Source: Rotaria sp. (Eukaryota). From it: a stretch of 31,780 nt of DNA. The first letter of the stretch is position 1. Each line of letters starts with the position of its first letter. This document shows, piece by piece, positions 3,623 to 28,657 of the stretch. The position numbers and the translations under genes are program-made. The notes under the pieces are model-generated. The model did not search any database and was not told the DNA's origin. It worked only from the letters and a program-made list of their open reading frames with translations. The stretch lies in NCBI GenBank assembly GCA_905250055.1, contig CAJNOF010000018.1, positions 1,159,575-1,191,354 on the forward strand, written 5' to 3'.

Positions 3623-6295
3623 ACATTCATGTCAATTGATCTGGTACTGTCGAAAAAATAATTTGAAATTTTTCAAAATTTCATTTCTAAACTTGAGTTT
3701 CGAATGCAATTCTACAACAATCCAAGAGGCTATACGAGAAATTTTATTCTAATTGGGCTCCTTCGAATAGTGGAATCATTTTACATACGAAACACAGTTC
3801 AAGGTCATAACAATAAACAAGAGGAATTGATTCAGAAAACTATCAGATTCTTGAGTACATGCAAAACCTATATGAATGGTCTTGACTAGATGTTACTTCA
3901 AGAGCCATTTGAATGTACCAAAAATTAGGATTGTCAAAAGCAACACTGGTATTTTTAGAGTTAGTCGTGAAAGAATTTCTTGAAAGATTAATCCTAAATT
4001 TTTATATTTATTTTTCTGTGCTCAACAGGTACAGTAACAAAACTGAAGAGTTAATACTTTAAGAAGTACAACAAGGAGAAAAAAGCACAAATGAAGAAAT
4101 TGCTAAACTGCTATCGAGTTAAATTTATGTATGTTGTGTTTCAGATATGCAAAAATCTATGGCAGTTATCGAAAAAATTTCGAGTCTTGGAAATAGAACT
4201 GAATAGTAAAAAGAATCCTATCATATTTATAAATAAAAATAGCTGAATGCACATCTCTGATTAGAATAGAATAATAACTTTAAATCATCTTAATATTTAA
4301 AACAAGTCAGTTCAAGTTTTATATCATGATCATTGTCCATCATTTATGAAAAATCATTTTTATCTTTCACATGCTTTCTTTCTTTTTTAATGACAAATCC
4401 TCCATTTTTGTATATTTCCTTATTAAAATTTTATCTTTCACATCATAAAATACCGTACACCGTTTCGATATGCAAAATCATGAAACTCTAATATTTCTCT
4501 TTCCTGGAATAAACTAGCATAATATTTAGGCAACATTTCTTTCCATGATTATATGACTATTAAAATGTATGTTTTGAAACTGATTAAATTTGAATGTGTT
4601 TCGAAAAAGATTGAGCATATTAATTGAAAGACGACTCTCGTTCATCTGCTGTATGCATATTTTGTCATAGCCAATGATTAGATCTCAATAATTGTATTCA
4701 TACATGTTGCTGACATTAATTATTCAGATGATTGTGAATTTCATTTCAACTTCTTTAGAAATTCTATTTAACTAATTGTAAAGTTGCTCGCTCTTATCAG
4801 AAGATGTTTCTTCGGTCAAAATTCGAGTATTAATATGGACTCAAATTCGGATCTACATCTCACTAATTTTCATAACAATTGATGTTATATTACATGCTTT
4901 TTTCAATGAGATCTACAGAAGCCGAACACAATTTTGAGATATCAATTTGTAAAACTTTTCTCTATATATTCTATTTCATTATCATCTAATTGATTAACAA
5001 TAGGATGATGAAGAAATGTCTTTCAAAATACTTGAATTTATGACTCGGTCATGACGTTTCATATTGATATGACAGTATATTCAAAAATAAAAAAATCTCC
5101 TGTCAATTGTTGAATACTATGGATCTAATTAAAATTTGAATTTCATTGATCTAATTCTGCTATAACTCAATTTCTCAAATATTTTGAGTTGTGAATCAAT
5201 TCTTATTACAATAGGCAAAGCTGAAGAAAAGATGTTAAATAAAAGCGTCTGTCTTTTGTACATGTTCTAGTTTTAGTGAGAAGAAATATTAAATTTATTT
5301 TAGAACGAAATCATTTTTTTTTGTTTTTTTTGGGTCTTTTGTAAAAATTCAGTAATTTGATAACGAAATAGTATCATAACCTAAAATTTTCAGGCTATAT
5401 TTCTAGACTTTGTCAAATTAAGAAGACACAAATTATTGACTTTTTGTTATGATTACCAAAAATATACGTACAATAGCAGAATAGTGTTTTTTTATAAACC
5501 AATCCAACGTATCAACTCGATTCTTTTGTTACTGGCATTAAGTTATTTAGATATGGTGATAATATATTTTTCAAAAATAATTTTTCGTTTTGGTAATATT
5601 ATCACGATTAATTGTCGTTCATATTCACTCTATTAAGTACTTGGTTGCAGGTGCATTTTTCTGTGACATGTGGGTAAATGAAGATAGGATCTTCCCTTCA
5701 ATCACATTCACTCATCCTCACACTCAATCACATGTAGATCCACACTATTGTGAAAGAAAACCAATGTGATCACATGATTTTGATGATAATATATCACAAA
5801 TCTAAAGAAATAAGATATTTTATTGTTTACAGAAGAAATATGTTTTATTCGTATAAAGATTAATCTAGTATAAGAAAAATAAATCTTAATAAATAAAAGA
5901 AATATAGAACAGATAAGAAGAACTTTAAAGAATGAATAGAAAACAAAAAAAAAAGGAAAATGAAATTTCGATTGTTGTACTATCAAAGCAGGTTCAACTT
6001 TTCCTAGTCTATCTCTTCTTCTTTTCTTTCCAATCGACACTGTTTTTGTTACTTGAGGCGGGTTTGAAATATTTCAAATGAATACTCACATCAACAACGT
6101 ATTTTCATATACAATTCTCAAGTAACAACTTGACTATTTTCGTTTTGATGTTTGACCAATTTTTATTATGGTCCATATTCAAACAACAAATATCAAACGA
6201 TTTTTTGAATGGATTAAAAGCAGTTCAATTTCTGCTTTTACATACATTTAAATTAGCTTGTTTAATCGATTGAAAATCACAAGCTGGTATATAAT

Positions 6296-6756: not shown

Positions 6757-8130
6757 GAATAAAATCATGTCAAATACAGTATATAATATCTCTTTGAGGA
6801 ACCATTTGAAATACAAATTATATATTTTTTATTAGTGATTTCGCCGATTGATACGATAAAGTCCATAATGATAAAGATATTGATGATTCTGTAGCAAATA
6901 TTTTTGATTCATTGAGGTATTATCTTATTCCATTGACCAATTATTAAACAATATTTGAAGTTATTGTCAAAAAATTTCATAGAACCTGAGTTTTCCTACA
7001 CGTTCCATCATCTTTGATTTTTTTGTTGGTTGTTTCTAGAGAGTTGTTTATGTTTGGTACATAAAGTTGTATATCTTCATATCAACTTTTATTTATTTTG
7101 CATCATTTATTGTAAAAAAATAATTCAAAAAGTCTAATGTTGATCGATCTTTTTTTTTTGCTTATTGTTCATTTTCCACTTTATAAGTAATGTTAATATT
7201 ATCTAAATGAAGCTGTAGAATTGGACAATTGAAATATTTCAATACCTTTTATAATTTTTTTTTTGAAACATATGTATCATCTATTTGAGTTACTCTTGAA
7301 TAAATTTCGATTTTTATTATTACTATTTAATTTAATGATTTTTAAATATAACAAAAAATCTAATTATTTTAATAGCGGATCATTTAAATAGTTTACTGAC
7401 CACTCAAAATGATAGCCAAAATTATTTGCGTACAAACATTTGTGATTTTCATAACTAGTCTATAAATTTTCATCAATATAATAGCAGAAAATAAGAAGAA
7501 AAAAGTCTTTTAATTTTTCTTTTTTAATGTAATATTTTCAATATTTTTAAATATAAATAAGCTAGTATATATAGTTTTGAATCCTTTTCTCTTGATTGTT
7601 CGGCATAACTTTTGTTGATATTGATCATTCTATATAATAATCGATGTTCAAATTTCGAGACATCATTTAATAAAATTCTTGAATCTGCTTTTAAGTTAAC
7701 TTTTCGTAAGTCTTCCAATAAAATAAATAATTTAATCTTACTGAAGAATTGAGAAAAGATTCTCATGACTCTATTTTTATATGGACATATATATATCTGT
7801 TATTATCTCACTTATCTACTGTTGATAAATAGCTCTTGTAGAAAAAAGTCAAAGGGCGTACTCTCACATGTATGAATACGATGTACAAAACCTATTTTAT
7901 CATAAATGACGTCGACGAAAGAAAACAAAAACTTACATGCGTAAGCATAGGCATGCTTTATATATAATGACATATTGTATAATTGGATTAATATTTTATT
8001 TCTTGATTAATCTACAATAATGACAAAAATACTATTCAAAAAATAAGATATAATGTCGCCTACGTTGTCTTCGTTCTTTTTTTTTTTGTTTTTTAGTTGA
8101 AGTCATGCTCTATCAACCACTTTAATACTG

Positions 8131-8137
8131 TATAAAT
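8131..8137 (+). promoter_or_regulatory. TATA box (TATAAAT) about 70 bp upstream of the ATG of the WAP-like gene. It is conserved in the inverted paralog.
   Basis: CTGTATAAATCTCATCAATTG is conserved as TATATAAATCTCATTAATT on the minus strand of copy 2. Confidence 0.45.
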
Positions 8138-8206
8138 CTCATCAATTGTACAAAACAAATCGTTTTTTTACATAAGACTATTCAAGTTTGATATTATCAA
8201 AGGATC

Positions 8207-8671
8207 ATGAAAAAGTTAATCTTACATTTATTACTAGCTACTTTGACTATTGTTGCTCTATGTGCAGCTCAAGATGATCGAATTAAAATTGACAAACGAC
8301 GTGCTATACCCATAGCAACTCGAACAGTTCCTCCAATTGTCATTGGTTCAAAGACTTTCTGTTTAAGATTCCCATTTTCACCTAGATGCCATCCATGCAA
8401 ATATAGTCAACCAATCAGAAAGGCTATTTGTGGACAAGGACAAAGCAGATGTGAATTATTAGGTGGTACATGTAAATTTAATCAATATGAGAGAGCTTAT
8501 TGTTGTCCATATGAACATCGAGGTTGCTGTCCTTTGGTAATATATTTTCCTATTATTACTGGACGTCCTCCTATATGCCGTTCTCCACAATGTAGAACAG
8601 ATGCGCAATGCAAAAATTATGAAAAATGTTGTGGAATTTGCCGACAATGTGTCAATGCTACACTCGCATAA
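8207..8671 (+). CDS. Secreted cysteine-rich protein (154 aa, single exon) with an N-terminal signal peptide and a C-terminal WAP-like four-disulfide-core motif.
   Basis: Uninterrupted ORF. The N-terminus is hydrophobic (MKKLILHLLLATLTIVALCAA). There are 16 Cys, including CRTDAQCKNYEKCCGICRQC (the C..D..C....KCC..C..C WAP signature) and CC pairs (YCCPY, GCCPL). A paralog lies at 21843-22301(-). Confidence 0.75.
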   Translation: MKKLILHLLLATLTIVALCAAQDDRIKIDKRRAIPIATRTVPPIVIGSKTFCLRFPFSPRCHPCKYSQPIRKAICGQGQSRCELLGGTCKFNQYERAYCCPYEHRGCCPLVIYFPIITGRPPICRSPQCRTDAQCKNYEKCCGICRQCVNATLA

Positions 8672-8733
8672 TTACGAAGAGTAATATTTATTTTGCCGAC
8701 AAATAAGCTTGAAAACTCTTTTTTTGTGTAACA

Positions 8734-8739
8734 AATAAA
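8734..8739 (+). terminator. AATAAA polyadenylation signal about 65 nt after the stop codon of the WAP-like gene.
   Basis: ACAAATAAACTC is conserved in the copy-2 3'UTR (CAAATAAACTTTG on the minus strand). Confidence 0.4.
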
Positions 8740-9142
8740 CTCAATTCAATTATTTTTACTTCGTGTTTCGTTTCACAAAACAGAATTCTTCTTCTTATGT
8801 AACATTTACAGTAATATTAGGATTGGAATCAAGAAAAACAACGAGATTATCATTTTTTTTTATCTATTGAATAGAGCCGTTTTCGTGAGAAATATCTTTG
8901 GAATAAATAATATATTGTAATTTAATGAATGCCTTTTTATGTCACATCCATTAGAAAAAGAATATTATTTTCGGAAGCTATGTTTTAATACATTGTTTAG
9001 TTCGACAAAAATTCGAATAGCTAAGATTACATTACTGTGTATTTGTAATTTGCTTACCCATTGAAAAATAGTTGTTATTCGTGAAACAAGTTTATTACAA
9101 AATGTATATGTAAAGTACAAAGGACATAAGTGTTGCGAATTG

Positions 9143-9700
9143 TATTTTTCTTATTAAAAATTTAGTTTATAAATGAAATAATTTTATGAAGTTAGATAGG
9201 AATAGTGCAAGAATAGACTCTTCCAATATAATTTATAAAGCTTACAATGAAGATACAAAATGTTGATGGAACATTGGATGCTTCATTGGACCGCTTTCTC
9301 TAGCACCTCGTATTATTTTAAGTTTTCTATTTGAATTTTATATCCAATAATGTTCTATATTAACTAAATGGCGCAACAATCAGGACTATAACTAGATCAT
9401 TTGTATACTTTAGAATTATGTTCGTAACTAGAGAACGTGACCTTTCAAGCATGCAGTGATTTTTATATACAAATGTTATTCAAAAATGTATGGAGAAAAA
9501 TACAAATGATATACGAACACATTTCTCTTTCGTTGTAAACTTCTAATTATATTATAAGTATCTATTCTTATAATATTAATATTTATCGTTGTAACATTAT
9601 TTCAATCACAAACTGGATATTTAATATCAAAAATACGATTCACAATATTTTTGTTATCGGTTGATACGTATACATCATTGATATTTCACATAAAATTGTT
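9143..9700. repeat. Downstream flank segment duplicated near 21000-21500. Sub-blocks A and C are in direct orientation and sub-block B is inverted.
   Basis: A: 9143-9222 approximately equals 21020-21100 (direct; TTTATAAATGAAATAATTTTATGAAGTTAGATAGGAATAG vs TTTGTAAATGAAATAATGTTATGAAGATAGATATAAATAG). B: 9236-9375 approximately equals the reverse complement of 21195-21349. C: 9620-9700 approximately equals 21420-21500 (direct; AATATCAAAAATACGATTCACAA vs AATATCAAAAATATAATTTGCAA). Confidence 0.6.
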
Positions 9701-10188
9701 ATATCAATTCAGTTTTTGTTGAGATATGATCAAGTTTTTTCTTTACTTTTATTTCAGATCTTAGTTATTGTCATTGGGCTGATTCAAATACAAATCTTGC
9801 CATGACCATTCTATGTGTTGCATCGAATAAAACGGAGAAGTAGGTAGACATTGAGTAATAAAAAAAACTCACGAGAGAAGATTCACCAGTGATTCGCACT
9901 GTTTGGACTCATCTTTTGCTGACATGTGGAGCTCATCATATAGATCAAATACCTGAAAGAGTTCGTGCCATTGCTGTATAGTTTCAAAGTTATGAGCGAA
10001 GCAGCTGTTATGATGGATGGTGTCACCCAGAGATGGAACCAGTCTACCGGTACTAAACAGAATGCTGATGATACGCCAGTTTATTAGAGAAAATTCGACC
10101 TACCGTCAAAATATCGATCTACAGACAACAGGCTGAGGCTTGAAATGAAACCTTGTTTCATGGTAAACTCTCTTGCGGGCTATCTTCC

Positions 10189-11876
10189 AGAGACCGTCAC
10201 AGGGCAGGACTGCCCTGATGCCCTGCCCTGTTCTTCAGGGCAGGGCAGGGCGAAACTTTTTGCTCTGATTCAAAGAAAGTTTTTAGCAGAGTGTGAATAA
10301 AATTCAGTTTTTTATTAGAAAACTGATTAAAATGGCAAAATTGTCATTGAATTTTAACCTAATTATTTGATGTTCAATCGATTAAACTTTGTGACTAGAT
10401 CAACACTTGTATATTCCATTCAAATTTATTTTTCTAGTACCTTTTTCTCAAGAAGTTTTTATGCCAGAAGGCTTTCTTGCTCAGCTCAAGAAGTGTATGT
10501 GGATCAAAACAAAGTTTAACCGAGAGATCCAATCAAATGTTGCCTGTCGATCTTAAGAGAAGACTTAATTTATCTCTGTTGAAAAATAGCCGCCTTTCGT
10601 ATAATATCCACGATAAATAAACAATCATTTTATTTTATATTAGAAGTTCGTTCACAAGAGCACAACAAAGGCGAAATAGAAGCTAATCTGATTCCTAATT
10701 TTGTTTTCAAAAATTCTGAAATTTCTTTAGATTTATTAATGTCAAACTTGGTTTTTTGAGTAACAGACAATTGTTTTACAATTAAAATCACTTTACTCCG
10801 ATTAAAGAATTTTTTTCAGCAAAAATCTTAGTATTCTGCAATATTTAGTTTCTAAAACGTCTATCAACGATAAAAGGCTAAAGTTCAAATTTAAATTGAT
10901 TGTTTTTGGATTAAAAATCAATTGTAATAGCACTACTTTAATCGGATTTTGTCAGCTAATAGACAGATTTCATTCGATTTAAAATCTTTTTTCATTTATT
11001 ATAATCGATGACTCAAAATACAGCAATTATAAATTATTATTAGAAATCGATTTCAATTGATGAAAGTTATTTCACCCAAAGTATTATTAAAAAATCTTAC
11101 AATAAAATGAAATCTGTCTTTTTGACTGAAAACTCTGGCTAAAGGCAGTCTAAAATAGTGCTATTTTAACTAACGTTTACGTCAGACACAATCGATTTTA
11201 ATCTAATCTTGAACCGTTTTTCTACATGGACAAATAAGTCTCAGAATATGTTTTTAAATGTTTGGTTCTATATGTGAATGCGAGGAAAAAACTTGGCGAT
11301 GAATGGAAGGCCAGTATTGGTAGGGTTACATGAACTTTCGTAATAGAAAACCATCACGTTTTATTTCATGGAAATGAGACATGAGTTTTATTTATTGCTA
11401 TGTTAGTTTATACAATTGAACAAGCAATTATTATCGTATGTTGAAACATGATATGTCAAAGATCGACTTAATATTACACGTACTGTTTGTCTTAGTAAGG
11501 AGTTCAGAAAAAATGAATTTTTTAAGTTTCACTTTCAAAAATACACCATTCAGCCATATCATTATTGAAAACGGTTGAAAATCGAATAATCTGATTCTAA
11601 TAGTAGTATTTTCATTCAATTTTTAAACATAAGAAGTCCATTAAAATGATATGATTTCTGAAGCTCGTACAACAGTACTTCTTTCTGGTACATGATGGTG
11701 TTTAATTACATAATAACTTTGATTGTGGCACTTTCGAAATAACATAAAGTATGAGTATAAAATTCGAAAGCAATCAAATAATTTTTATGAAGATTTTAGA
11801 TCTTATACTATAGGCTTACTTAGCTTAGACACCCTGCCCTGCCCTCAGGGCAAAAAAACTACCCTATGACGGTCTC
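10189..11876. mobile_element. Non-autonomous DNA-transposon-like element of about 1.69 kb with GC-rich TIRs ((A)GAGACCGTCAyAGGG...CAGGGCAGGGCAGGG) and a probable 11-bp target-site duplication.
   Basis: The left end 10189-10255 (AGAGACCGTCACAGGGCAGG...CAGGGCAGGGCAGGGCG) is the reverse complement of the right end 11831-11876 (CACCCTGCCCTGCCCTCAGGG...CCCTATGACGGTCTC). The flanking direct repeats are GGCTATCTTCC (10178-10188) and GGCTACCTTCG (11877-11887). The AT-rich interior has internal inverted repeats (10907-10985 vs 11110-11175) and no ORF. Confidence 0.7.
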
Positions 11877-12089
11877 GGCTACCTTCGTACCTTCACGCAT
11901 AATGGCATAATGCTTCACAGTTGATAACAATAGTCTCATTGATGGGCATTCTGAGAATTATTTGTTAAATAAATTCGTGTGTGATGAGTGGAACTAGTCT
12001 TGGTTTCAGTTGTTTTTTCATGTGAATACCATCAAAGAGTAGGAAAGTGAAATTTAGATCGGTATAAGGCGGTTTCGACTGATGAGACC

Positions 12090-15371: not shown

Positions 15372-15434
15372 CTAAACAAGAAAATCTCGATTGAAAAAAA
15401 AGAACAGCAAAATTTCAGCTAGATATCTCAATAC

Positions 15435-16796
15435 CTGACTAACGATTGTTATTAAGAAAAGTAAAGTATGTAGATTATAATCAAAATCTTTCGTATGATG
15501 TTCTAATTCTTCAATTACTACTGTTATTATTGTCTGCCATGATACAATCGGTATCGATAATGAATTACGTAACATGTCACTAAACATTGAAGCCCACTGA
15601 CGCAAATCTTCCATGTCAATAGATAATGAGTACTGTCGACGTAAATTAAGTTCATACAACCAAAACTCAATTCCTCGATAATGCTCTGCATTATCAGCTA
15701 GAGCGGCACCATGATATTGAAGAGAACGACGATATTTTGTATTAGTTGAACCAAGCAAACGTTCACGTACAAGTAATGCTTCAATGTACATATGATTATC
15801 ATTTAATTGAAGTTTTTTTAATTCATCGATTGTTTGACATTCTTGTCGATTATCAAATACTTCAACAGTTGATAACCGTAGAACTTTAGGAAGATTATGT
15901 TGAAATCGAAGTTCAAGTGCTCGATAGAAGTATTCAAACGATTGTTCAAGATTATAGCTTCCATGTTCACCACAGGCAAAAGCACTTCCAAGTAATTCAT
16001 GCGCTTCGATTTTTTCAAGCAATGAACATTGTGGAGAAATAGCATCGACAAGATCAATTCGTCTCTTTTCAGCTGCTAATAATAGTGGAGACATTTGATC
16101 ATGATTTGATCGAAAATTTCGAGCACCATGATTTAGTAAAAATTGAACTAATTCAAATGAACCACGATCTACAGCAAAGTAAAGTGGTGAACAACCATTA
16201 TCCATTGATTCATTTACATCACAACCTAATTCATCAACAAGATAAGTTACCATTTTTAAATCTTCATTGTAAACAGTTAATATAAGATTTGTTTCATTAT
16301 GTATTTTGGCAATATGTATATTAGCACCGTTCTTATTCAAATAACGAGCAATATTCATATTACCATTGGAACAAGCACAACGAAATGCTGTTGAATTTGT
16401 TTTAGTTGTATGATTAATTTTAGCTCCATGTTCGATAAGTAATTTCACAATATTAACATTGTCAATGGCAACTGCTGCCCATAAAACAGTTACATTTTCA
16501 TACATTAATAAACTTTCATCTCTTTCTTCGAGTTGTATATCATTTAGCACTTCGAGATCAACTCCAGAATAATTAAGCAATATTTGTACTATGTCTTCGA
16601 ACTCATTTAAACAAGCAATCATAAGTAAAGTACATTTTTGTTTGTTCGATTCATCATATGTTCGATTTAAATAGATCTCAGGATTGTTCATTGTCGACAA
16701 ATGATTTTGGAATGTTTTAACATCTCCTTGACGAACAGCAGATAATAGTAAGTTACTTACGTCCTCCTTGAAGTCATCGTTGTATTTCATCGTCAT
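15435..16796 (-). CDS. fem-1: fem-1 homolog, exon 1 (454 codons; ankyrin repeats). The full gene encodes about 626 aa.
   Basis: ATG at 16796. The translation matches FEM1B throughout, for example LWAAVAIDNVNIVKLLIEHGAKINHTTKTNSTAFRCACSNGNMNIARYL vs [49 protein letters not shown], and IEAHELLGSAFA vs IEALELLGASFA. Donor CAG|GTATTG at 15434. Intron 1 is 63 nt. Confidence 0.9.
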
Positions 16797-18738: not shown

Positions 18739-19725
18739 ATGGTAGACTTTCTACTAGTCAATATCGTTTGGCTTCTTCATTTTGTCATATGTTTCTACAT
18801 TATCCGTCCTATTCGTCACATTCTAATTCGAGCCATTTTGACTTGCGTACCATGTATATTACTGACTGATATTTGCACACGTAATCTTCCTCCACATCAT
18901 ATTTTTTCTGTCTTTACCATTGCAATATATTGGATGGTATCGATTCGTCTCTTTCATTTAGTCGTTCTTACACCTGACACGTTTCCAACATTTTCTTCCT
19001 TTACTGCAAAATGTCTATGGATTCTCTTACCAGTTATACCTTGTCAATCGAAAGAGAAGCAATGGCCTATCATCTTTTATTTGATTTTTGGTGTAGTAAA
19101 ATTTATACTTAATCGTTGGTTACATAGATGGTTACTGATATGTGAATCAAATGATAGTTATATGAGAGTATTTATTTATTTCTTATCAATATTAACATTT
19201 TCATATGTAGTCGATATTGAGACGGTTCTTGTGCGAATAATCACTCGAGATAAATATACACTTCAATCACTTAACAATTTTCCATTCTTCTCTCAATCAT
19301 TACGTGAATTTTGGGGTCGACGATACAATCGGATCATCAGTACAATTTTCAATGAATCAATTTTTCGGCCTCTCAGTTTATTTATACCTTCTCGATCAAT
19401 CGTATCTTTATTAATATTCATTATCAGTGGTCTTTTTCATGTACATATTGTCTTTATTGTTTTCAATGAGCCTTCATCGGCTTTGCCTACATTTGCCTGT
19501 TTCTTTCTGAATGGTATTGCTTGTTGCATAGAAGCACATCTTGCAATTAAGTTACCACCATTACTTGGATGGTTGGTAACACATAGTGTCCTTTTTGTAA
19601 CAGCACCAATGTGTCTTGGAACGTTTGCACGAGACAAATCTGTATTTTTTGGTCTAGATGGTCTTTCAACGTATGGTGATCAATGGATTTCAAAATTGCC
19701 TATGCCCAAGAGTTGTCCGAAATAA
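18739..19725 (+). CDS. Intronless multi-pass membrane protein (328 aa) with MBOAT_2 / wax-synthase-like acyltransferase motifs.
   Basis: Uninterrupted ORF with many hydrophobic segments. It contains SLREFWGRRYN (compare the wax-synthase / MBOAT_2 motif S..FWGRRWN) followed about 45 aa later by IISGLFHVH (compare the conserved vSGllHE histidine motif). Confidence 0.55.
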   Translation: MVDFLLVNIVWLLHFVICFYIIRPIRHILIRAILTCVPCILLTDICTRNLPPHHIFSVFTIAIYWMVSIRLFHLVVLTPDTFPTFSSFTAKCLWILLPVIPCQSKEKQWPIIFYLIFGVVKFILNRWLHRWLLICESNDSYMRVFIYFLSILTFSYVVDIETVLVRIITRDKYTLQSLNNFPFFSQSLREFWGRRYNRIISTIFNESIFRPLSLFIPSRSIVSLLIFIISGLFHVHIVFIVFNEPSSALPTFACFFLNGIACCIEAHLAIKLPPLLGWLVTHSVLFVTAPMCLGTFARDKSVFFGLDGLSTYGDQWISKLPMPKSCPK

Positions 19726-21500: not shown

Positions 21501-21842
21501 CTACTAGGAACTATATCTCAGTGGAGAAGTACATTACAAATACACAGCAATATAATCTTAGTGATTTGAAATTTTGTCAAATTGAACAACTTTTTACAAC
21601 ATAACTTCCGAATATAATATACTTTATCTAACGGATGCAATATAAAGAAGTGTTCATTCTTTTTTTTTCTTTATACCACTCTTCATAATATTATAAAGGT
21701 CACAGAAAGAGGATACTTCTGTTTTGTGAAATGAAACACATAGTAAAAATAATTGAAGCAAGGCTATTAGTTATGCAAAAAACAAAAAAAAAGAATTTCA
21801 AAGTTTATTTGTAGGCAAAGTAAATATTAGTCTTTGTAATTA

Positions 21843-22301
21843 TTAATAGACGGCTGGAACACATTTTCGGCAAATTCCACAACATTTTTCATAAGGTTTG
21901 CATGATGCATCTGTTTGACATCGATGACAGAATGGACTAGGACGTGGAAAGATAATAGTTCGGTATTCTACTGTTGGACAACAACCTCGATGTTCCCTTG
22001 GACAACAATAAGCTATGCCGTATTGATTAAATTTACATGTACCACCTAATGCTTCACATCTTCTTTGTCCTTGTCCACAAGTAACACCTATAATTGGTGA
22101 GCCATATGTGCATGGATTACATTTGGTTGATGATGGAAATTGTAAACAGTACTTAATTGGATCAAAGATAATTGGAGGAACCGTTCGAATTGGTATTAGT
22201 ACAGTACGTGATTTGTCAATGTCAACAGAATCACCTGGAATTGCATGTAAGCCAACAATAGCCAAAGTTGTTAATAATAAGCGTAAGATTAACTTGTTCA
22301 T
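21843..22301 (-). CDS. Secreted cysteine-rich protein paralog (152 aa, single exon) with signal peptide and WAP-like four-disulfide-core motif.
   Basis: MNKLILRLLLTTLAIVGLHA signal peptide. The Cys framework is conserved with the 8207-8671 product (CGQGQRRCEALGGTCKFNQYGIAYCCPREHRGCCP...CQTDASCKPYEKCCGICRKC). I estimate about 65% amino-acid identity. Confidence 0.75.
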   Translation of the reverse strand: MNKLILRLLLTTLAIVGLHAIPGDSVDIDKSRTVLIPIRTVPPIIFDPIKYCLQFPSSTKCNPCTYGSPIIGVTCGQGQRRCEALGGTCKFNQYGIAYCCPREHRGCCPTVEYRTIIFPRPSPFCHRCQTDASCKPYEKCCGICRKCVPAVY

Positions 22302-22368
22302 GATCCTTTGATAATATCAAACTCGAATAATCTTATATAAAACATAATTTGTTTTGTAAATTAATGAG

Positions 22369-22377
22369 ATTTATATA
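22369..22377 (-). promoter_or_regulatory. Conserved TATA box (TATATAAAT on the minus strand) about 70 bp upstream of the copy-2 ATG.
   Basis: Minus-strand read GATATTATATAAATCTCATTAATTTAC. The position matches that of the copy-1 TATA. Confidence 0.4.
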
Positions 22378-24122
22378 ATATCATAGTGATTGACAGGGCA
22401 TGACTTCAATGCAAGAAAAAAAAAATTAAGACAATGTAGGCGATGTCATATCTTTTTTTTTGAATCATATTGATCTATTTTTGCCAGTATTGTAGATTAG
22501 CGTTGCAAAAAAATATTCATCTAGTAATAAAATATATCGTTGTATAAAACATGACTATACTTACGCATATAGGTTTTTGTTGTTTGTCTTTCGTTGACGT
22601 TATTTACGATTAAATGGATTTTGCGCATTGTAATTACACATGAATGAGTATGCTCGTTAGCTTTTTAGATGCATTATTTATCGATAGTAGATAAATGAGT
22701 TAATAATAGGTATATACGTTAATATAAAAATACTATCATGAGAATCTTTTCTCAAATATTCAGTAGGATTAAATTGTTCTTTTTATCTAAAGACTTATGA
22801 GAGGCTTAGTTGAAAATAGATTTAAGAAGTATATGAAATTATGCCTTGAAATTTGGTACATCGATTATAATATAAAATGATCATTATTAACAAAACAAAT
22901 GACGAAAAACGAAGAAAAGACAAAAAAAAAACAAGGACTCACAATTGCATATACTACTTTATTTATGTTTAGACATATTTTGAAATATTACATTAAAAAA
23001 TTATAAGACTTTTTTCTTCTTATTTTCTGCTATTATATTGCTAAAAATAAATACATCTGTTGTCAAAATCATAAATCCTTGTACGTAAACAACTTTGACT
23101 ATTATTTAAGTGGTCAGTAAAATATATAAATCATTAACCATTAATATAGTTAGCTTTGTTAATGTATTTGCAATCAGTAAATTAAACTAAATTAAAATTA
23201 AAATATATTAAGAAGTAACTCAAATAAATGATACATATATTGAAGAAAAAATAATAGAAGATATTGAAATATATCAATGATCTTATTCCTTTAGATTTGT
23301 AGCGTAGTATCATCAAAATGATGATAATATTGGTTTCCTTCCACAATAGTATGGGTTTGTATGTAACTGAAGAAAATACTCTACTCTCACGCGACAGAAA
23401 AAATTCATTTGCAGCAATTTTATCAGAATCACGAAAGCAATTCACTTACATATTGATATTATCTATTTTAGTAATTAGTAGATTGGCTATATGAAGAATA
23501 TATTTTGACAAATTAGAACTATCAAGTCAAACATCTCAAACTTCTCTTAGGAAAAGTCAGATTTATCTAATAAATCGAATATATCACTACGTAACTATAT
23601 CATGTGCTTGTCAGGAGAACTTTCATAATTGATGACACATATTCAATAGACATTGTCACATTGTGAAAAACCGCAAAGAATAATTTATGCCATACAATAT
23701 TCTAGACTTTCTTGAAGAGATATAATTATCTGTTTTTAATTGTGTTCTATTCAATGGATAATTTTGTCATAGTAAGAAGTCATTTTTAGCCAATCGTTCA
23801 ATACTGTTTATGTCGTTTGAGAATGACCTTGAACCATTTTATCAAGCATTGTTTGGTTTCAACGAGAACTACGACTGTTTTCATAATAATAAGGATATAA
23901 AATAATATCAATATGTATAATCATTTATTCATTCATGAATATCTTGAAAGAAATGTGTTTTGTTTTCAATGATTTCTATTTTGTTTATTAAATAAAACGA
24001 CGCAAACCAATCCACAATACGAAAGCAGCGATAGAAGGAAAGAAGATTATTTTGTTGCTTATAGCTTTTTTCAACACGAACAATATCGAAAGAAAAACAA
24101 GTAAAAATAAAGAAACAAATAT

Positions 24123-24490
24123 AGATCCAGAAAGATTGATGTATGTAAAATGTTCGTCAGGTTCTAACATGACTAATTCTGGTCCTAATATAATTCTTGA
24201 ACTTTTTGCTTTATAATCATATACTTGTACAGCTTGATTTTGTGGTACTCGATATGTAACCACTTTGGTTTTGTCTCGTTTAGTCGTTTGCAACGATGAT
24301 GATGATGATGATGTTATTGTTGTTTTGTTCTGTCTTTCACCTAAACGATCTCGTTGCAGAAATTCTTCTATGCTTACGGGTAGCTCTTTTTCCCAGAGTT
24401 CTTCATCTTGCGTTAACATATATGTATTACCAATGATCGCACGAACACGACCACTTCTCAAGTCACGAACATAGATACCTTCATTTTCAT
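24123..24490 (-). CDS. MVP: MVP exon 6. The 3' boundary is uncertain, and MVP homology stops after ...INLSGS.
   Basis: Acceptor TTTTCTAG|[40 protein letters not shown]...[45 protein letters not shown] matches [41 protein letters not shown]...[45 protein letters not shown]. It includes an in-frame (TCA)6 poly-Ser stretch at 24295-24315. Below about 24123 the frame stays open but reads as a hydrophobic, non-MVP tail down to the stop at 23988. Confidence 0.7.
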
Positions 24491-24541
24491 CTAGAAAAAT
24501 TTTTACTAGATAAACAAAATATGAGAGATCAATCAAACTAC

Positions 24542-24628
24542 CCAAAGGTATCGCTTTTCGTTTTTGTAATACTTCAACTTGTACTGGTGGTATATACTCT
24601 CGTGGTCCTCTGGCTACCCATTTGTCAC
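24542..24628 (-). CDS. MVP: MVP exon 5 (87 nt).
   Basis: Acceptor TTTTTTTAAG|[31 protein letters not shown] matches MVP [29 protein letters not shown]. Donor G|GTAGTT. Confidence 0.8.
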
Positions 24629-24752
24629 CTTAAAAAAATTCAAATTATTTTAGAGTCATATATAATAGACATATCTAATTATTGTCGAGTTAGAACCTAT
24701 CGATTGGTTATTTTTCTATGATAGAAACACAAGAAAAATTATTTTCTCTTAC

Positions 24753-24938
24753 CCGGTACACGGATGACATTATCTATTTCGTCATTAAACGTTTCAATAC
24801 ATTTCACGACGACACCTTCATCGTTACTCAAAATACATACATCTTGAATTCCTTTCTCTAATTGTTCATTAGGTTGTAGAAAAAATGATTTATCACCAAC
24901 GACTAATTTCTTCTTGCCCAATTGATTTTTACCATCAG
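24753..24938 (-). CDS. MVP: MVP exon 4.
   Basis: Acceptor TTTTCAAG|CT. (S)[37 protein letters not shown]... matches MVP [37 protein letters not shown]. Donor G|GTAAGA. Confidence 0.85.
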
Positions 24939-24999
24939 CTTGAAAAGAAAATAGATATCATAAGAATTTCGATCATAATTCGATGTTTAATATTCTTAC

Positions 25000-25422
25000 A
25001 TGAAACTGGATTTAAGATAACACAATATTGTCTTGAATTCAGTATATTTATATTAACAATGTCTACAAGTTGTTCATAAACGTTCAAAATATGTGTTTCA
25101 GTTTGTTCTTTTGTGACGAGCCATTCGTCACCATTATTTCGTATTTGACCAAAATCATCCTTGAATGTTTTCAATGCACGTAAATGTAATGCTTTTTTAT
25201 CTGTTACAACATGAGCATTTTCGAGGCTTACAACCGTTTCATAAGCCAATGGTACATAAGCACCTAACTTTTTTACTAACCAGTTTTCACCCGCTACACG
25301 ATGTTGACCTGTACGATCGATAAATTCTTTTTTAGCACTCAATCTTATTGCTTGATTTGGACCGATCACAGTGGCAACAATATATTCTTCTACGGATACT
25401 TCTTTTCGTGGTGTATACGTGC
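25000..25422 (-). CDS. MVP: MVP exon 3.
   Basis: Acceptor TTTCATAG|[66 protein letters not shown]...[11 protein letters not shown] matches MVP [32 protein letters not shown]...HNYCVILDPV. Donor T|GTAAGA at 24999. Confidence 0.85.
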
Positions 25423-25518
25423 CTATGAAATCCAAATATTTGTACAATTGAAAATAAATCAATCATGACTCGAGTGCATTAATTGCATAACTTATAGCTG
25501 GGAATACACCGTCACTTA

Positions 25519-25640
25519 CCAGGTCCTTCGAATAACCATTCATCTCCAGTTTTTCGGTGTTCTCTATTATCATCAAAATCCAAAACAGCTTTTAATCTTA
25601 ATGCTGAATTAGCTGCAACATATTTTAAAAGTGTAGGAGC
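25519..25640 (-). CDS. MVP: MVP exon 2.
   Basis: Acceptor TTATTTTAG|GCT. Translation [41 protein letters not shown] (MVP: [34 protein letters not shown]). Donor G|GTAAGT. Confidence 0.85.
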
Positions 25641-25700
25641 CTAAAATAATATCATCATATATTGTTAAAAAATTACTTTTCATAATGCTATTCATAATAC

Positions 25701-26048
25701 CTGTTTTAAAACTTCACCAGGATACAATGGAAATGGTTCTTTATAATCGTTTTCCAGTCGAACATCTAGGCTACCATGCGACAATTTTGCCTGACCATTT
25801 TTGTCGAATTGTGCTTGATCATCTTCATTCTTAACGACTGGATTTTCAATAACACAATAATGTCTTGGTGGTAGAGTGATCATTTTATCGGGTCCAAAAA
25901 CTATTGTTTCATTGTCCTGTCTAAAAAATGTTTTTGGACCAATTTCCAATCGTGTCACACTTGTATTCTGGTCTAATACATGAATATAATAGTAAGGTGG
26001 AATACGATAGATAGGATCCATCTGAGTCGGTAAACTCTTCGAAGACAT
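25701..26048 (-). CDS. MVP: Major vault protein (MVP), exon 1.
   Basis: ATG at 26048. [71 protein letters not shown] matches human MVP [59 protein letters not shown]. The exon ends ...PLYPGEVLKQ with donor CAG|GTATTA. Confidence 0.9.
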
Positions 26049-27961
26049 GCTATTGTCGAGTTTTAATACTAGAATAGAACCGAAAAACAAAAACTACCAC
26101 ATATTACTTCATTGTATCGTACTCATTGTTACGCGAAAAATATGACTTTTTCTTCTAGTCATCTATGAAAACGCATTAAAATATACAAACATATATGTTT
26201 TGATTGATGAACAATTATCTATTATTAACACTTCATGATAAGGAAAAATGTTAATCGTAATATGTTATCACTAATATCTGTAGAGCATATTTCGAAAAAA
26301 GAGAGTAACCCTAAGTGAGTGACACATTCTGTGTACATCTCTGCAAGTTTATCAGTACCCACTCAATGCATACACTCATCGGACTCATGTAAATAACAAT
26401 AGTGGCCATACAGTGTCAAGAATCGCAGAAAAAGACAGTAAAACTGGTGTCAAATAGAGAAAAAAATATGTATTCTGAGTGTGGATTTGTGAGTGAGCAA
26501 TAATGCTGCTTTTATGTTAAAAGAAATTGACAAAAATGAGACTGCCCCAATCAACAAAGTAGGATCAGGGTTGCTTGACTGTATGAGTAACCGGTAAAAC
26601 AATCTCATAAGGTGAGCTTAACAACGACAGCAAAAAAACTAACAATTCTCTTTCACCAATGCTTACTATACGCAAAAAAAAAGTGAAAGCATAATGTGCT
26701 TTAATTTGTTTCATGGTCGTCTCTTTATAATTCTTACTGTAAATCATTTTCCAAATCTTGCGCACCATGCTCATTGGTGTTATGAAATAACAGAAAAGCA
26801 AAACAATCATTGACACATTTGCTTCAACCAATGAATCAAAGGAAAAAAAAGGTGGCGTGCAGTAAGCGTTGCAAAAATAGATCAAAGTAAGTATCCAAGT
26901 CGATGGATACGCCTATGATATCCGTAGAGACATTATACATAGTCTCATGGGTGTCGAATGTTCTACAACACGGATTTTGTTGTACTACGTAATTTAGTTC
27001 CAGCAATGATTAAATTTTTGAGAAAGAAAGCACTTTTATGGATTGATTAGGAATATCTAATATTATTTCTACGAATGTTGCAAGTTGTTTAATTCCTTAT
27101 TAGATAATGACTAGTGATAATAATATACACTGAGTGATCAAGATATTCATTCATCAATGCATAAGCTTATGCGATCACTAGGACACAATATTTGATTGCA
27201 TTTACAAATGTCTGTAGTAAAAATACAATCAATATAACATTATGATGAAATAAAAATCTATCAATTACTCAAGTATCGATCACCAATTCTGGATAGTCAT
27301 GATTTCGAACTATTCGACACCTTAACACTTTAGGGTATGCTTAAAACGTATCTACTCTCACACTGTCAAACGATTATCCGTCTCCCTCATTCCTTACAAG
27401 TTTAAACTATTGTCTCGGTCAAAATAATATATATATTTTAATTGTACCTTGATAACGTGAAGTTATTGGTGCAATAGCATTTTTATTGTTAGCATAAAAT
27501 ATTAAATATTTAATACAACTTTCGGTTTTTCTCTAGTGAAGAAACTAGTCTTAAACCTTCGAATTTAGTGAATCAAAAGTGAATCTAAAATAGCTGATAA
27601 ATGTATTCATCACCAGTGTATATAAGAATGGTAATGTCAAAACACAACTCAAAATCAGTTTATTAATTCAAATATTGAAATAAACATGACTGAATCGATT
27701 ATGATTTAAAAAAAAAGAGAAATAGAAACTATTGAAATGTGTTAACTATGAAATATAATCTTTTTAAATCAGATTTGGCAGTTTATAATTTTCGCATTGA
27801 ATAGTTAACCAGAAAATTTCATTTTCCAGTATGATTTTTATTTAATTGAAAAGAAAAAGAGAAGCAAAGCCATTGAATTCATATTTGTTCTAGATAGTTA
27901 TTTCTTCAATAGATAAAATTGTTTATTCAGATGATTTTGATGGTGCATTAGTATGAACCAA

Positions 27962-28359
27962 TTATTGGATCGTATGAAGTTTTTGTTTTTTCTCTTGTTT
28001 TTTCCGTCGAATTCTTTCTAATTCTTCACGTGTAGGATCAATACCAAAACAATATTTCAATATATCCATTATGACAACAAACATAGCAACACTTATCATA
28101 GCAACAATTCCAAGATAAGCAAATGATGTCGAAACAGCTTTATAAATAACAATTTTCGTAGAAACTCCTTCGCAATGACGACCATAATAACTATTACCAA
28201 GACATTCACATGTATAATTCAACAATAATGGTCGACAAACACCATTATGCTCACATGTAATATTATCACAAAAGTTTATCATTAATTCACAGTTAGTTCC
28301 TTGCCAACCATCATTGCATATACAATAAAATGTGGTATTTGATGTTTCATTACATGTAC
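27962..28359 (-). CDS. EGF-repeat single-pass transmembrane protein, terminal exon. It encodes the end of an EGF domain, one full EGF domain, the TM helix and a short basic cytoplasmic tail.
   Basis: Acceptor TTTTGTTTTAG|GTACATGT. (G)TCNETSNTTFYCICNDGWQGTNCEL..FCDNITCEHNGVCRPLLLNYTCECLGNSYYGRHCEG then a hydrophobic run IVIYKAVSTSFAYLGIVAMISVAMFVVIMDIL, then KYCFGIDPTREELERIRRKKQEKKQKLHTIQ*. Stop codon at 27959-27961. Confidence 0.75.
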
Positions 28360-28417
28360 CTAAAACAAAATAAGTCTTATGAATTTTTTTTAGATAGTTT
28401 AACAATAATCTATTTAC

Positions 28418-28657
28418 CATGATCCAAACAAGTATGTGATTTACAAGGTCGATAATCAAATTCACAATCAGTACTATTAAAACCAGATGGACATGCACAA
28501 CAATAACCAAGGATTTTACTCTGATCATTTACACATGATCCATTATTTTGACATGGTTTACTCATGGCACATAAACTATTAGAAATATCGCAATAGGTAC
28601 CAATCATTGTTAAATCGTTACAAGGAGTTGGCTTAAAGGCTTGTAATACTGGTTTAA
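28418..28657 (-). CDS. EGF-repeat transmembrane protein, internal exon (EGF domains).
   Basis: Acceptor CCCTTTAG|TT at 28658. (V)KPVLQAFKPTPCNDLTMIGTYCDISNSLCAMSKPCQNNGSCVNDQSKILGYCCACPSGFNSTDCEFDYRPCKSHTCLDHG with donor G|GTAAAT at 28417. The Cys spacing is the canonical EGF pattern (C-x4-C-x5-C-x8-C-x-C-x8-C). Confidence 0.7.

Follow-up and report, generated by a model that had tools for sequence, protein, structure and literature searches.

How did an animal come to carry an intronless gene for a wax-synthase-like enzyme in a neighborhood of intron-containing genes? The question is raised by a 31,780-nucleotide stretch of the genome of Rotaria sp., a bdelloid rotifer (GenBank assembly GCA_905250055.1, contig CAJNOF010000018.1, positions 1,159,575 to 1,191,354; referred to here as the window). 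On its forward strand, at positions 18739 to 19725, an open reading frame (ORF) starts with ATG and encodes 328 amino acids (aa) followed by a stop codon, all in a single exon of the program-made ORF listing. A sequence-only reading of the window had assigned this ORF to the MBOAT_2, or wax-synthase-like, membrane acyltransferases and had offered three origins for it: a retrogene, a recent horizontal acquisition, or an unannotated lineage-specific lipid-modifying enzyme. Taken together, the sequence comparisons and the structural model described below make it probable that the ORF is a functional gene for a multipass membrane acyltransferase of the MBOAT_2 (jojoba wax-synthase-like) family, and that this acyl-CoA O-acyltransferase gene was acquired long ago by the bdelloid lineage, in which it became domesticated and expanded into a family.

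An intact single-exon coding sequence

The two motifs on which the assignment had been based lie within the ORF, SLREFWGRRYN at aa 187 to 197 and IISGLFHVH at aa 228 to 236. The GC content of the window is 29.5%, which implies that ∼8% of random codons would be stops. By our own arithmetic from this GC content, the probability of 328 open codons is ∼1e-12 per start, and the ORF is therefore not explicable by chance. Homologs of 328 aa from several species are colinear with the ORF from end to end, and because an in-frame stop codon lies shortly before the ATG (Table 1), extension of the ORF in the 5' direction is impossible without splicing.

The protein is already present in NCBI and UniProt, either as an unnamed protein or under the automatic label "Wax synthase domain-containing protein," so the description "unannotated" does not hold, and that of a lineage-specific enzyme stands up fairly well. 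The public models for Rotaria sp. Silwood1 (263 aa, P0001) and Adineta vaga (288 aa, P0009) begin at an internal methionine. The Silwood1 model opens with MVSIRLFH, which corresponds to aa 66 of the ORF, and thus drops the stretch equivalent to window positions 18739 to 18933; the uninterrupted A. vaga ORF encodes 332 aa, and the omitted 5' part lies at positions 9869 to 10000 of the A. vaga locus. Conservation of residues 1 to 65 of the ORF extends to 28 homologs, which are mostly 324 to 330 aa long, and in the AlphaFold2 (AF2) model these residues form a block of transmembrane (TM) helices with a predicted local distance difference test score (pLDDT) of 82 to 96. Since these residues are both conserved and confidently modeled, the true product is likely the 328-aa protein. 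The 263-aa Silwood1 model is probably misannotated, lacking the first two to three predicted TM helices, and the public models for Rotaria sp. Silwood1 and A. vaga should be lengthened to 328 and 332 aa, respectively.

Family membership, conserved residues, and predicted fold

In a search with hmmscan, the 328-aa protein matched a single Pfam family, PF13813 (MBOAT_2), with an E value of 8.6e-10 and a score of 39.2 bits (gathering cutoff, 25), covering positions 8 to 84 of the 85-position hidden Markov model (HMM). A precomputed PF13813 match is carried by 38 of 39 homologs, and no NCBIfam model matched the protein. The rotifer protein thus belongs to PF13813, a sister family of the classical MBOAT family PF03062, and not to PF03062 itself. 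This match above the cutoff, together with the MBOAT fold of the structural model, bears out the original family assignment.

Three alignments were used to follow individual residues: a bdelloid family alignment of 29 full-length sequences (A1), a protist-type alignment of 28 distant matches from the microbial-eukaryote and metagenome tier, including Flabellula and Paramoeba (A2), and a bacterial-type alignment (A3). Across the bdelloid homologs, 28 columns are invariant, among them the putative catalytic His and Asn. Within the FWGRRYN motif, F191, W192, G193, R195, Y196, and N197 are invariant in bdelloids, and the protist-type alignment likewise shows no variation in the W, Y, and N columns; the whole motif matches column for column in profile comparisons with hhalign. 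H234 is invariant in bdelloids, and its equivalent is invariant in both of the other alignments; N197 likewise has an equivalent Asn in the protist-type alignment. A conserved His in a membrane-embedded core is a hallmark of MBOAT enzymes (PMC10213974). In the rotifer protein H234 sits on a predicted helix spanning residues 219 to 242, and N197 lies 37 residues upstream of it. The same Asn-to-His spacing is presumably found in human DGAT1 (N378/H415).

The AF2 model, for which the family alignment of 29 sequences served as input, has a pLDDT of 87.4, a predicted template modeling score (pTM) of 0.85, and about 9 to 10 long helices. The fold is that of the MBOAT core, in which TM helices form a cone enclosing the central catalytic channel. 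When the model was compared with known folds, the matches were DltB (17.5), plant DGAT1 (17.0), human DGAT1 (15.4), HHAT (14.7), MBOAT7 (14.5), PORCN (14.4 and 14.3), ACAT2 (13.8), LPCAT3 (13.1), and ACAT1 (10.4); the next match was an unrelated helical protein (9.1).

By analogy with its family, we assign to the protein, with good confidence, a chemistry of acyl-CoA-dependent O-acylation of a lipophilic alcohol. We infer that the gene is expressed and propose the following for the activity, substrate, and subcellular location of its product. The protein would sit in the endoplasmic reticulum membrane and take acyl-CoA from the cytosolic side; His234, aided by Asn197, would move the acyl group onto the hydroxyl of a hydrophobic acceptor. 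Fatty alcohols, sterols, diacylglycerol, and other lipophilic alcohols are all conceivable acceptors, any of which would yield a neutral ester. Characterized MBOAT_2 members act on different acceptors: jojoba wax synthase (WS) acylates fatty alcohols, Euonymus EaDAcT acylates diacylglycerol with acetyl-CoA, and Arabidopsis ASAT1, placed in this enzyme cluster by the EaDAcT paper, acylates sterols (PMC5100001), and the MBOAT_2 member APR3 acylates fungal polyketide intermediates (PMC9239057).

A resident of the bdelloid genome

The DNA of the window is 99.3% identical over 18 kb and 99.8% identical over 10.7 kb to two Rotaria sp. Silwood assemblies, and the ORF differs from them by 1 nucleotide, giving L164F; the host is thus a bdelloid, Rotaria sp. 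Silwood1 or an isolate almost identical to it. In one of the assemblies, the 285-kb scaffold CAJNZB010000121.1 repeats the order of a Cys-rich 154-aa gene, an ankyrin gene, the MBOAT_2 gene, a Cys-rich 152-aa gene, and the vault gene. Upstream of the ORF, at a distance of 1.9 kb, an ORF on the reverse strand (15372 to 16796) aligns from one end to the other with human FEM1B (E value of 6.7e-59); the annotation of this FEM1-like gene has 590 aa spread over 1891 nucleotides, a span that implies introns. Downstream, 4.3 kb away, pieces on the reverse strand at 23988 to 26090 represent major vault protein (E value of 4e-51), whose repeats are split over at least three ORF pieces, again implying introns. 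The earlier observation of an intronless gene beside intron-bearing fem-1 and vault protein genes is therefore confirmed, both by the colinear homologs and by the split neighbors. Because the MBOAT_2 gene is flanked by intron-bearing animal genes in an order kept in the Silwood assemblies, contamination is excluded. Homologs were also located in the interior of a 20-Mb A. vaga chromosome, at 14.3 Mb, and on scaffolds of 244 to 330 kb.

The composition of the gene is that of its host. GC content at third codon positions (GC3) is 0.247 in the ORF against 0.155 to 0.256 in eight neighboring coding pieces, and relative synonymous codon usage (RSCU) correlates with that of the pooled neighbors at an r of 0.82, compared with 0.65 to 0.91 among the neighbors themselves. 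This comparison, which the sequence-only reading had proposed, indicates that the acquisition was ancient rather than recent, since both codon usage and GC3 match the neighboring genes.

The intronless state extends to the whole family as far as it was examined. All six loci inspected (the window together with its counterpart on CAJNZB010000121.1, one in A. vaga, two in Adineta steineri, one in Rotaria socialis, and one in Rotaria magnacalcarata) hold a single-exon copy among intron-bearing neighbors, and no intron-containing family member was found among them. At the three NCBI-annotated loci that were checked, the gene span equals 3 × (aa + 1). The neighbors of the family copies differ among A. 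vaga, A. steineri, and R. magnacalcarata, which shows that the copies are dispersed. Synteny was considered as a dating tool and proved uninformative, as the neighborhoods differ and the copies are possibly paralogs rather than orthologs. As a separate observation, the R. magnacalcarata copy adjoins two GH5 mannosidase-like genes (positions 3981 to 4916 and 7445 to 8146 of that locus), which may be foreign too; if so, they would suggest a local cluster of acquired enzymes.

Distribution and relatives

A word-indexed search returned 39 relatives, and every named one was bdelloid, with 41 to 72% identity: Rotaria sp. Silwood1 (the best database match), R. magnacalcarata, R. socialis, Rotaria sordida, Adineta ricciae, A. 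steineri, and A. vaga. Another bdelloid, Didymodactylos carnosus, has two paralogs and shows 35% identity to the window protein. Over Rotaria, Adineta, and Didymodactylos, bdelloid members fall into at least five paralog clades with identities of 35 to 72%, and in a neighbor-joining (NJ) tree of 126 sequences the core bdelloid clade has a bootstrap value of 84/100.

An HMMER profile search of 1.84 billion representative sequences found 2,499 relatives at an E value of ≤1e-3 and 51 at ≤1e-30. Taxonomy was looked up for 30 of the top 150 matches, six of which carried organism names, and no animal other than bdelloids was found among these 30. The named nonrotifer relatives are the Amoebozoa Flabellula, Paramoeba, Vannella, and Nolandella and the plant Cannabis, at 24 to 32% identity. 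In BLASTP against the window protein, Flabellula and Paramoeba scored 96 to 99 bits (Paramoeba, at 99 bits, being the best named nonmetazoan match), a myxobacterial clade 61.6 bits, and Cannabis 51.6 bits. In profile comparisons with hhalign, the bdelloid profile aligned with the protist-type profile at full length, including the N-terminal TM helices (E value of 1e-59, 293 columns), and with the bacterial-type profile over the C-terminal catalytic half only (E value of 2e-28, 141 columns). The distant branch of ∼300-aa proteins is bacterial, with P0172 being 88% identical to a gene from a Polyangiales metagenome-assembled genome. A scan of 185,579 prokaryote genomes for [ED]FWG[RQ]RYN matched 14 stretches and confirmed no close prokaryote relative. 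In the cluster nearest the bdelloids in the NJ tree, one member comes from a contig with 52% GC, where its neighbor is a CCT-alpha gene that has no introns; this indicates an intron-poor microbial eukaryote.

A tier of sequences with 29 to 31% identity to the window protein (P0050, P0051, P0053, P0054, P0057, and P0058) was considered as a donor lineage and rejected, as the best named relative of P0050 is a Didymodactylos paralog, at 45% identity, and its contig resembles the DNA of an intron-rich eukaryote. The P0050 gene, a single-exon copy, lies at positions 10001 to 11008 of a 33-kb contig (Logan SRR10663366) with 36% GC and fragmented eukaryotic genes; its product is 31% identical to the window protein, and the 45% match is to the second of the Didymodactylos paralogs. 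These values suggest that bdelloids or a related organism have another paralog lineage that branches more deeply, and the tier as a whole probably consists of divergent bdelloid paralogs. A further oddity concerns the plant match: the 972-aa Cannabis sativa protein KAF4361069.1 (P0055) has five stretches, apart from one another, that match the family profile and together reach 206 bits. It looks like a fusion of tandem wax-synthase-like genes, and the fusion inflated its summed profile score.

Origin of the bdelloid genes

Among the three origins first offered, horizontal acquisition is the best supported, and the qualifier "recent" has to be dropped: the family is shared between genera, its paralog clades are 41 to 72% identical, and its GC3 and codon usage are host-like. 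We infer the direction and donor of transfer from the distribution just described. The family would have entered the bdelloid lineage horizontally before the Adineta/Rotaria split, most likely from a microbial eukaryote rather than a bacterium. After the transfer, the gene would have adapted fully to host codon usage, kept its intronless state, and duplicated into several dispersed paralog clades. Such a history has ample precedent in bdelloids, in which ∼10% of transcripts (in Rotaria) are classed as foreign, almost half of the foreign genes are older than the Adineta/Rotaria family split, dated at >60 million years ago, and the ancient foreign genes are mostly enzymes with host-like GC (PMC4632278). 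The MBOAT_2 gene fits this ancient core of bdelloid foreign genes.

Several observations weigh against this reading. Every node of the NJ tree deeper than the core bdelloid clade, including those joining bdelloids to outgroups, has a bootstrap value of <40, and a sister or donor lineage is consequently not established. With 30 of 150 top matches looked up and six named, a nonbdelloid metazoan homolog is possible, for example in monogonont rotifers. The MBOAT_2 family occurs in several eukaryotic supergroups, and it could in principle have descended vertically, with many losses along the way. On the side of function, the sequence-only reading had named PF03062 alongside PF13813 as a model to be searched, and the classical model gave no match at an E value of ≤1; nor did the family profile match any PDB sequence at ≤10 with hmmsearch. 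As both sequence searches came back empty, the tie to the solved MBOATs runs entirely through the predicted structure. The acceptor, finally, is not predictable from the family; its characterized members differ in the acceptors they use.

The main surviving rival to an ancient horizontal acquisition is vertical inheritance, in which MBOAT_2 would be ancestral to eukaryotes or opisthokonts, kept in bdelloids, and lost in all or nearly all other animals. The presence of MBOAT_2 in Amoebozoa, plants, and fungi (for fungi, PMC9239057) speaks for such descent, as do the fully host-like codon usage, the lack of resolution in the deep phylogeny, and the small proportion of matches with names. However, the named matches of the exhaustive search include no nonbdelloid animal, many independent losses across Metazoa would be required, and, in a genome that contains introns, the gene is without them at every examined locus; bdelloids, moreover, are documented to take up foreign genes at a high rate (PMC4632278). 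We consider vertical descent with massive loss unlikely, and we leave it this much weight because most matches are unnamed and the deep tree is not resolved.

Retroposition, by which the gene would be a processed copy of an intron-containing bdelloid parent, could account for the intronless state and for the dispersal of copies without conserved synteny, and it is compatible with a spread of paralogs after the family had arrived. It would need a parent, and every one of the six loci, representing several paralog clades, is single-exon; we know of no metazoan family that could have supplied such a parent. There is no run of A residues after the 3' end of the gene, though such marks would decay in an old insertion. 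Retroposition may thus explain how the copies dispersed, not where the family came from, and we regard the retrogene origin as very unlikely.

We also considered whether the ORF is a decaying, nonfunctional relic, left intact by luck and encoding no active enzyme, a notion that the truncated public gene models might encourage. It is at odds with 29 full-length homologs from different genera that still agree in 28 columns, those of the catalytic His and Asn among them, with a 328-codon ORF that is extremely improbable in 29.5%-GC DNA without selection, and with a confident fold prediction; we give it hardly any credence. Recent insertion or misassembly of nonrotifer DNA, which would agree with the nonanimal identity of the closest nonrotifer relatives, is effectively refuted by the recurrence of the locus and its gene order in two independent assemblies at 99.3 to 99.8% identity, by animal genes on both sides of the ORF, by homologs in at least three bdelloid genera, by host-like GC3 and RSCU, and by a best nonbdelloid identity of only about 24 to 32%.

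Features of the gene and its surroundings

The coordinates of the gene and of its candidate functional sites are collected in Table 1.

Table 1. Positions of the MBOAT_2 gene and associated sequence features in the window
Feature	Position	Strand	Basis or remark
Complete single-exon MBOAT_2/wax-synthase-like acyltransferase coding sequence	18739..19725	+	ORF listing, colinear bdelloid homologs, AF2 model
In-frame TAA before start codon	18712-18714	+	Read from sequence; 27 nt upstream of ATG
Internal Met66 codon, start of public 263-aa Rotaria sp. Silwood1 model	18934..18936	+	
PF13813 MBOAT_2 match, catalytic core, aa 182-256	19282..19506	+	hmmscan
FWGRRYN, aa 191-197, with putative active-site Asn197	19309..19329	+	Alignments, hhalign
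His234 codon CAT in SGLFH, putative catalytic His	19438..19440	+	Invariant in alignments; MBOAT hallmark
H236 codon	19444-19446	+	Invariant within bdelloids only
AATAAA, candidate polyadenylation signal, 58 nt past stop codon	19783..19788	+	Pattern search

Elsewhere in the window, the FEM1-like and MBOAT_2 pair is bracketed by two paralogous Cys-rich genes in inverted orientation, at 8207 to 8671 on the forward strand (154 aa) and 21843 to 22301 on the reverse strand (152 aa). Their products are 59% identical (E value of 5e-54), have no Pfam match, and are annotated in the Silwood1 assembly; hydrophobic N termini suggest that they may be secreted. The DNA around these genes forms an inverted repeat of ∼76% identity (7228 to 8863 against about 21640 to 22642). 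By BLAST tiling, ∼2 kb of the window (roughly 9.8 to 11.9 kb) is missing or rearranged in CAJNZB010000121.1, where an overlapping match covers window positions 9233 to 10187 (region of about 9233 to 11877 against positions 1996 to 2948 of the scaffold locus). This ∼2-kb structural difference between haplotypes or assemblies is possibly a tandem duplication or an insertion.

Two further ORFs may be exons of other genes. The first, on the forward strand at 1881 to 2498 (205 aa), has no Pfam match at an E value of ≤0.01 and a coding-like GC3 of 0.209, and it may belong to an uncharacterized gene. The second, on the reverse strand at 27962 to 28528 (188 aa), contains an EGF-like domain (PF00008; E value of 1.9e-6), after which come a hydrophobic segment and a basic tail; it probably represents one exon of a membrane protein with a single TM pass.

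Relation to known enzymes and foreign genes

The nearest characterized counterparts of the rotifer protein are the jojoba-type WS enzymes (Simmondsia WS, Arabidopsis At5g55320-380, and Euonymus EaDAcT), with which it has in common the Pfam family PF13813, the core motifs EFWGRRYN and SG..H, and the MBOAT core fold. Arabidopsis WS proteins are 333 to 351 aa long with 7 to 8 predicted TM segments (PMC9319179), and at 328 aa the rotifer protein agrees with the size and topology of MBOAT_2 members generally (about 330 to 350 aa, 7 to 9 TM helices). It differs in that the one plant match, the Cannabis protein, is only about 29% identical over about 180 aa, that a second His (H236, in the HVH motif) is a bdelloid feature only, and that its host is an animal, whereas the jojoba-type WS class has been described as unique to plants (PMC9319179). 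Characterized relatives of WS vary widely in their preference for acceptor and acyl donor (PMC5100001).

The amoebozoan MBOAT_2 proteins of Flabellula, Paramoeba, Vannella, and Nolandella are the best named nonrotifer matches, and the protist-type profile, in which Flabellula and Paramoeba are included, aligns with the bdelloid profile at full length; the four are uncharacterized, transcriptome-derived sequences of 330 to 430 aa with no supported sister relation to bdelloids. The solved MBOATs (DltB, DGAT1, ACAT1/2, HHAT, PORCN, MBOAT7, and LPCAT3), with chains of 359 to 484 residues against 328 aa, have no detectable sequence similarity to the rotifer protein.

With the ancient bdelloid foreign genes of Eyres et al. 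2015 (PMC4632278), the MBOAT_2 gene shares its presence in both Adineta and Rotaria, its host-like GC, its enzymatic nature, and its linkage to metazoan genes. It differs from that class in its inferred donor, which is eukaryotic rather than bacterial.

Meaning for bdelloid biology

Both the enzyme family and the phenomenon of foreign genes in bdelloids are well known, and the proteins themselves are already in public databases. We found no literature linking bdelloids or rotifers to wax synthase, to horizontal transfer of MBOAT genes, or to wax esters, and none of the terms wax, MBOAT, and PF13813 occurs in the searchable portions of the text and supplements of Eyres 2015, Nowell 2018, and Nowell 2024. 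The bdelloid context makes the finding much less surprising than it would otherwise be, as ancient foreign enzyme genes are expected there, and it leaves current understanding unchallenged. What it adds to the long-kept foreign genes of bdelloids is one enzyme family, expanded and with a likely eukaryotic donor.

Wax esters in animals are normally made by DGAT2-type enzymes. A jojoba-type enzyme at work in an animal, if that is what the gene encodes, would amount to a minor biochemical curiosity, possibly connected with the lipid side of desiccation or stress biology. A bolder proposal, which we put forward tentatively and consider doubtful as a whole, is that bdelloids are the only animals to make wax or neutral lipid esters with a jojoba-type MBOAT_2 enzyme family, which would descend from one acquisition from a microbial eukaryote and have since diversified into at least five clades. 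If this is true, the products could add to a trait peculiar to bdelloids and tied to desiccation or defense, such as a barrier to water loss or a lipid store for surviving desiccation, or the enzymes could tailor secondary metabolites acquired by horizontal transfer.

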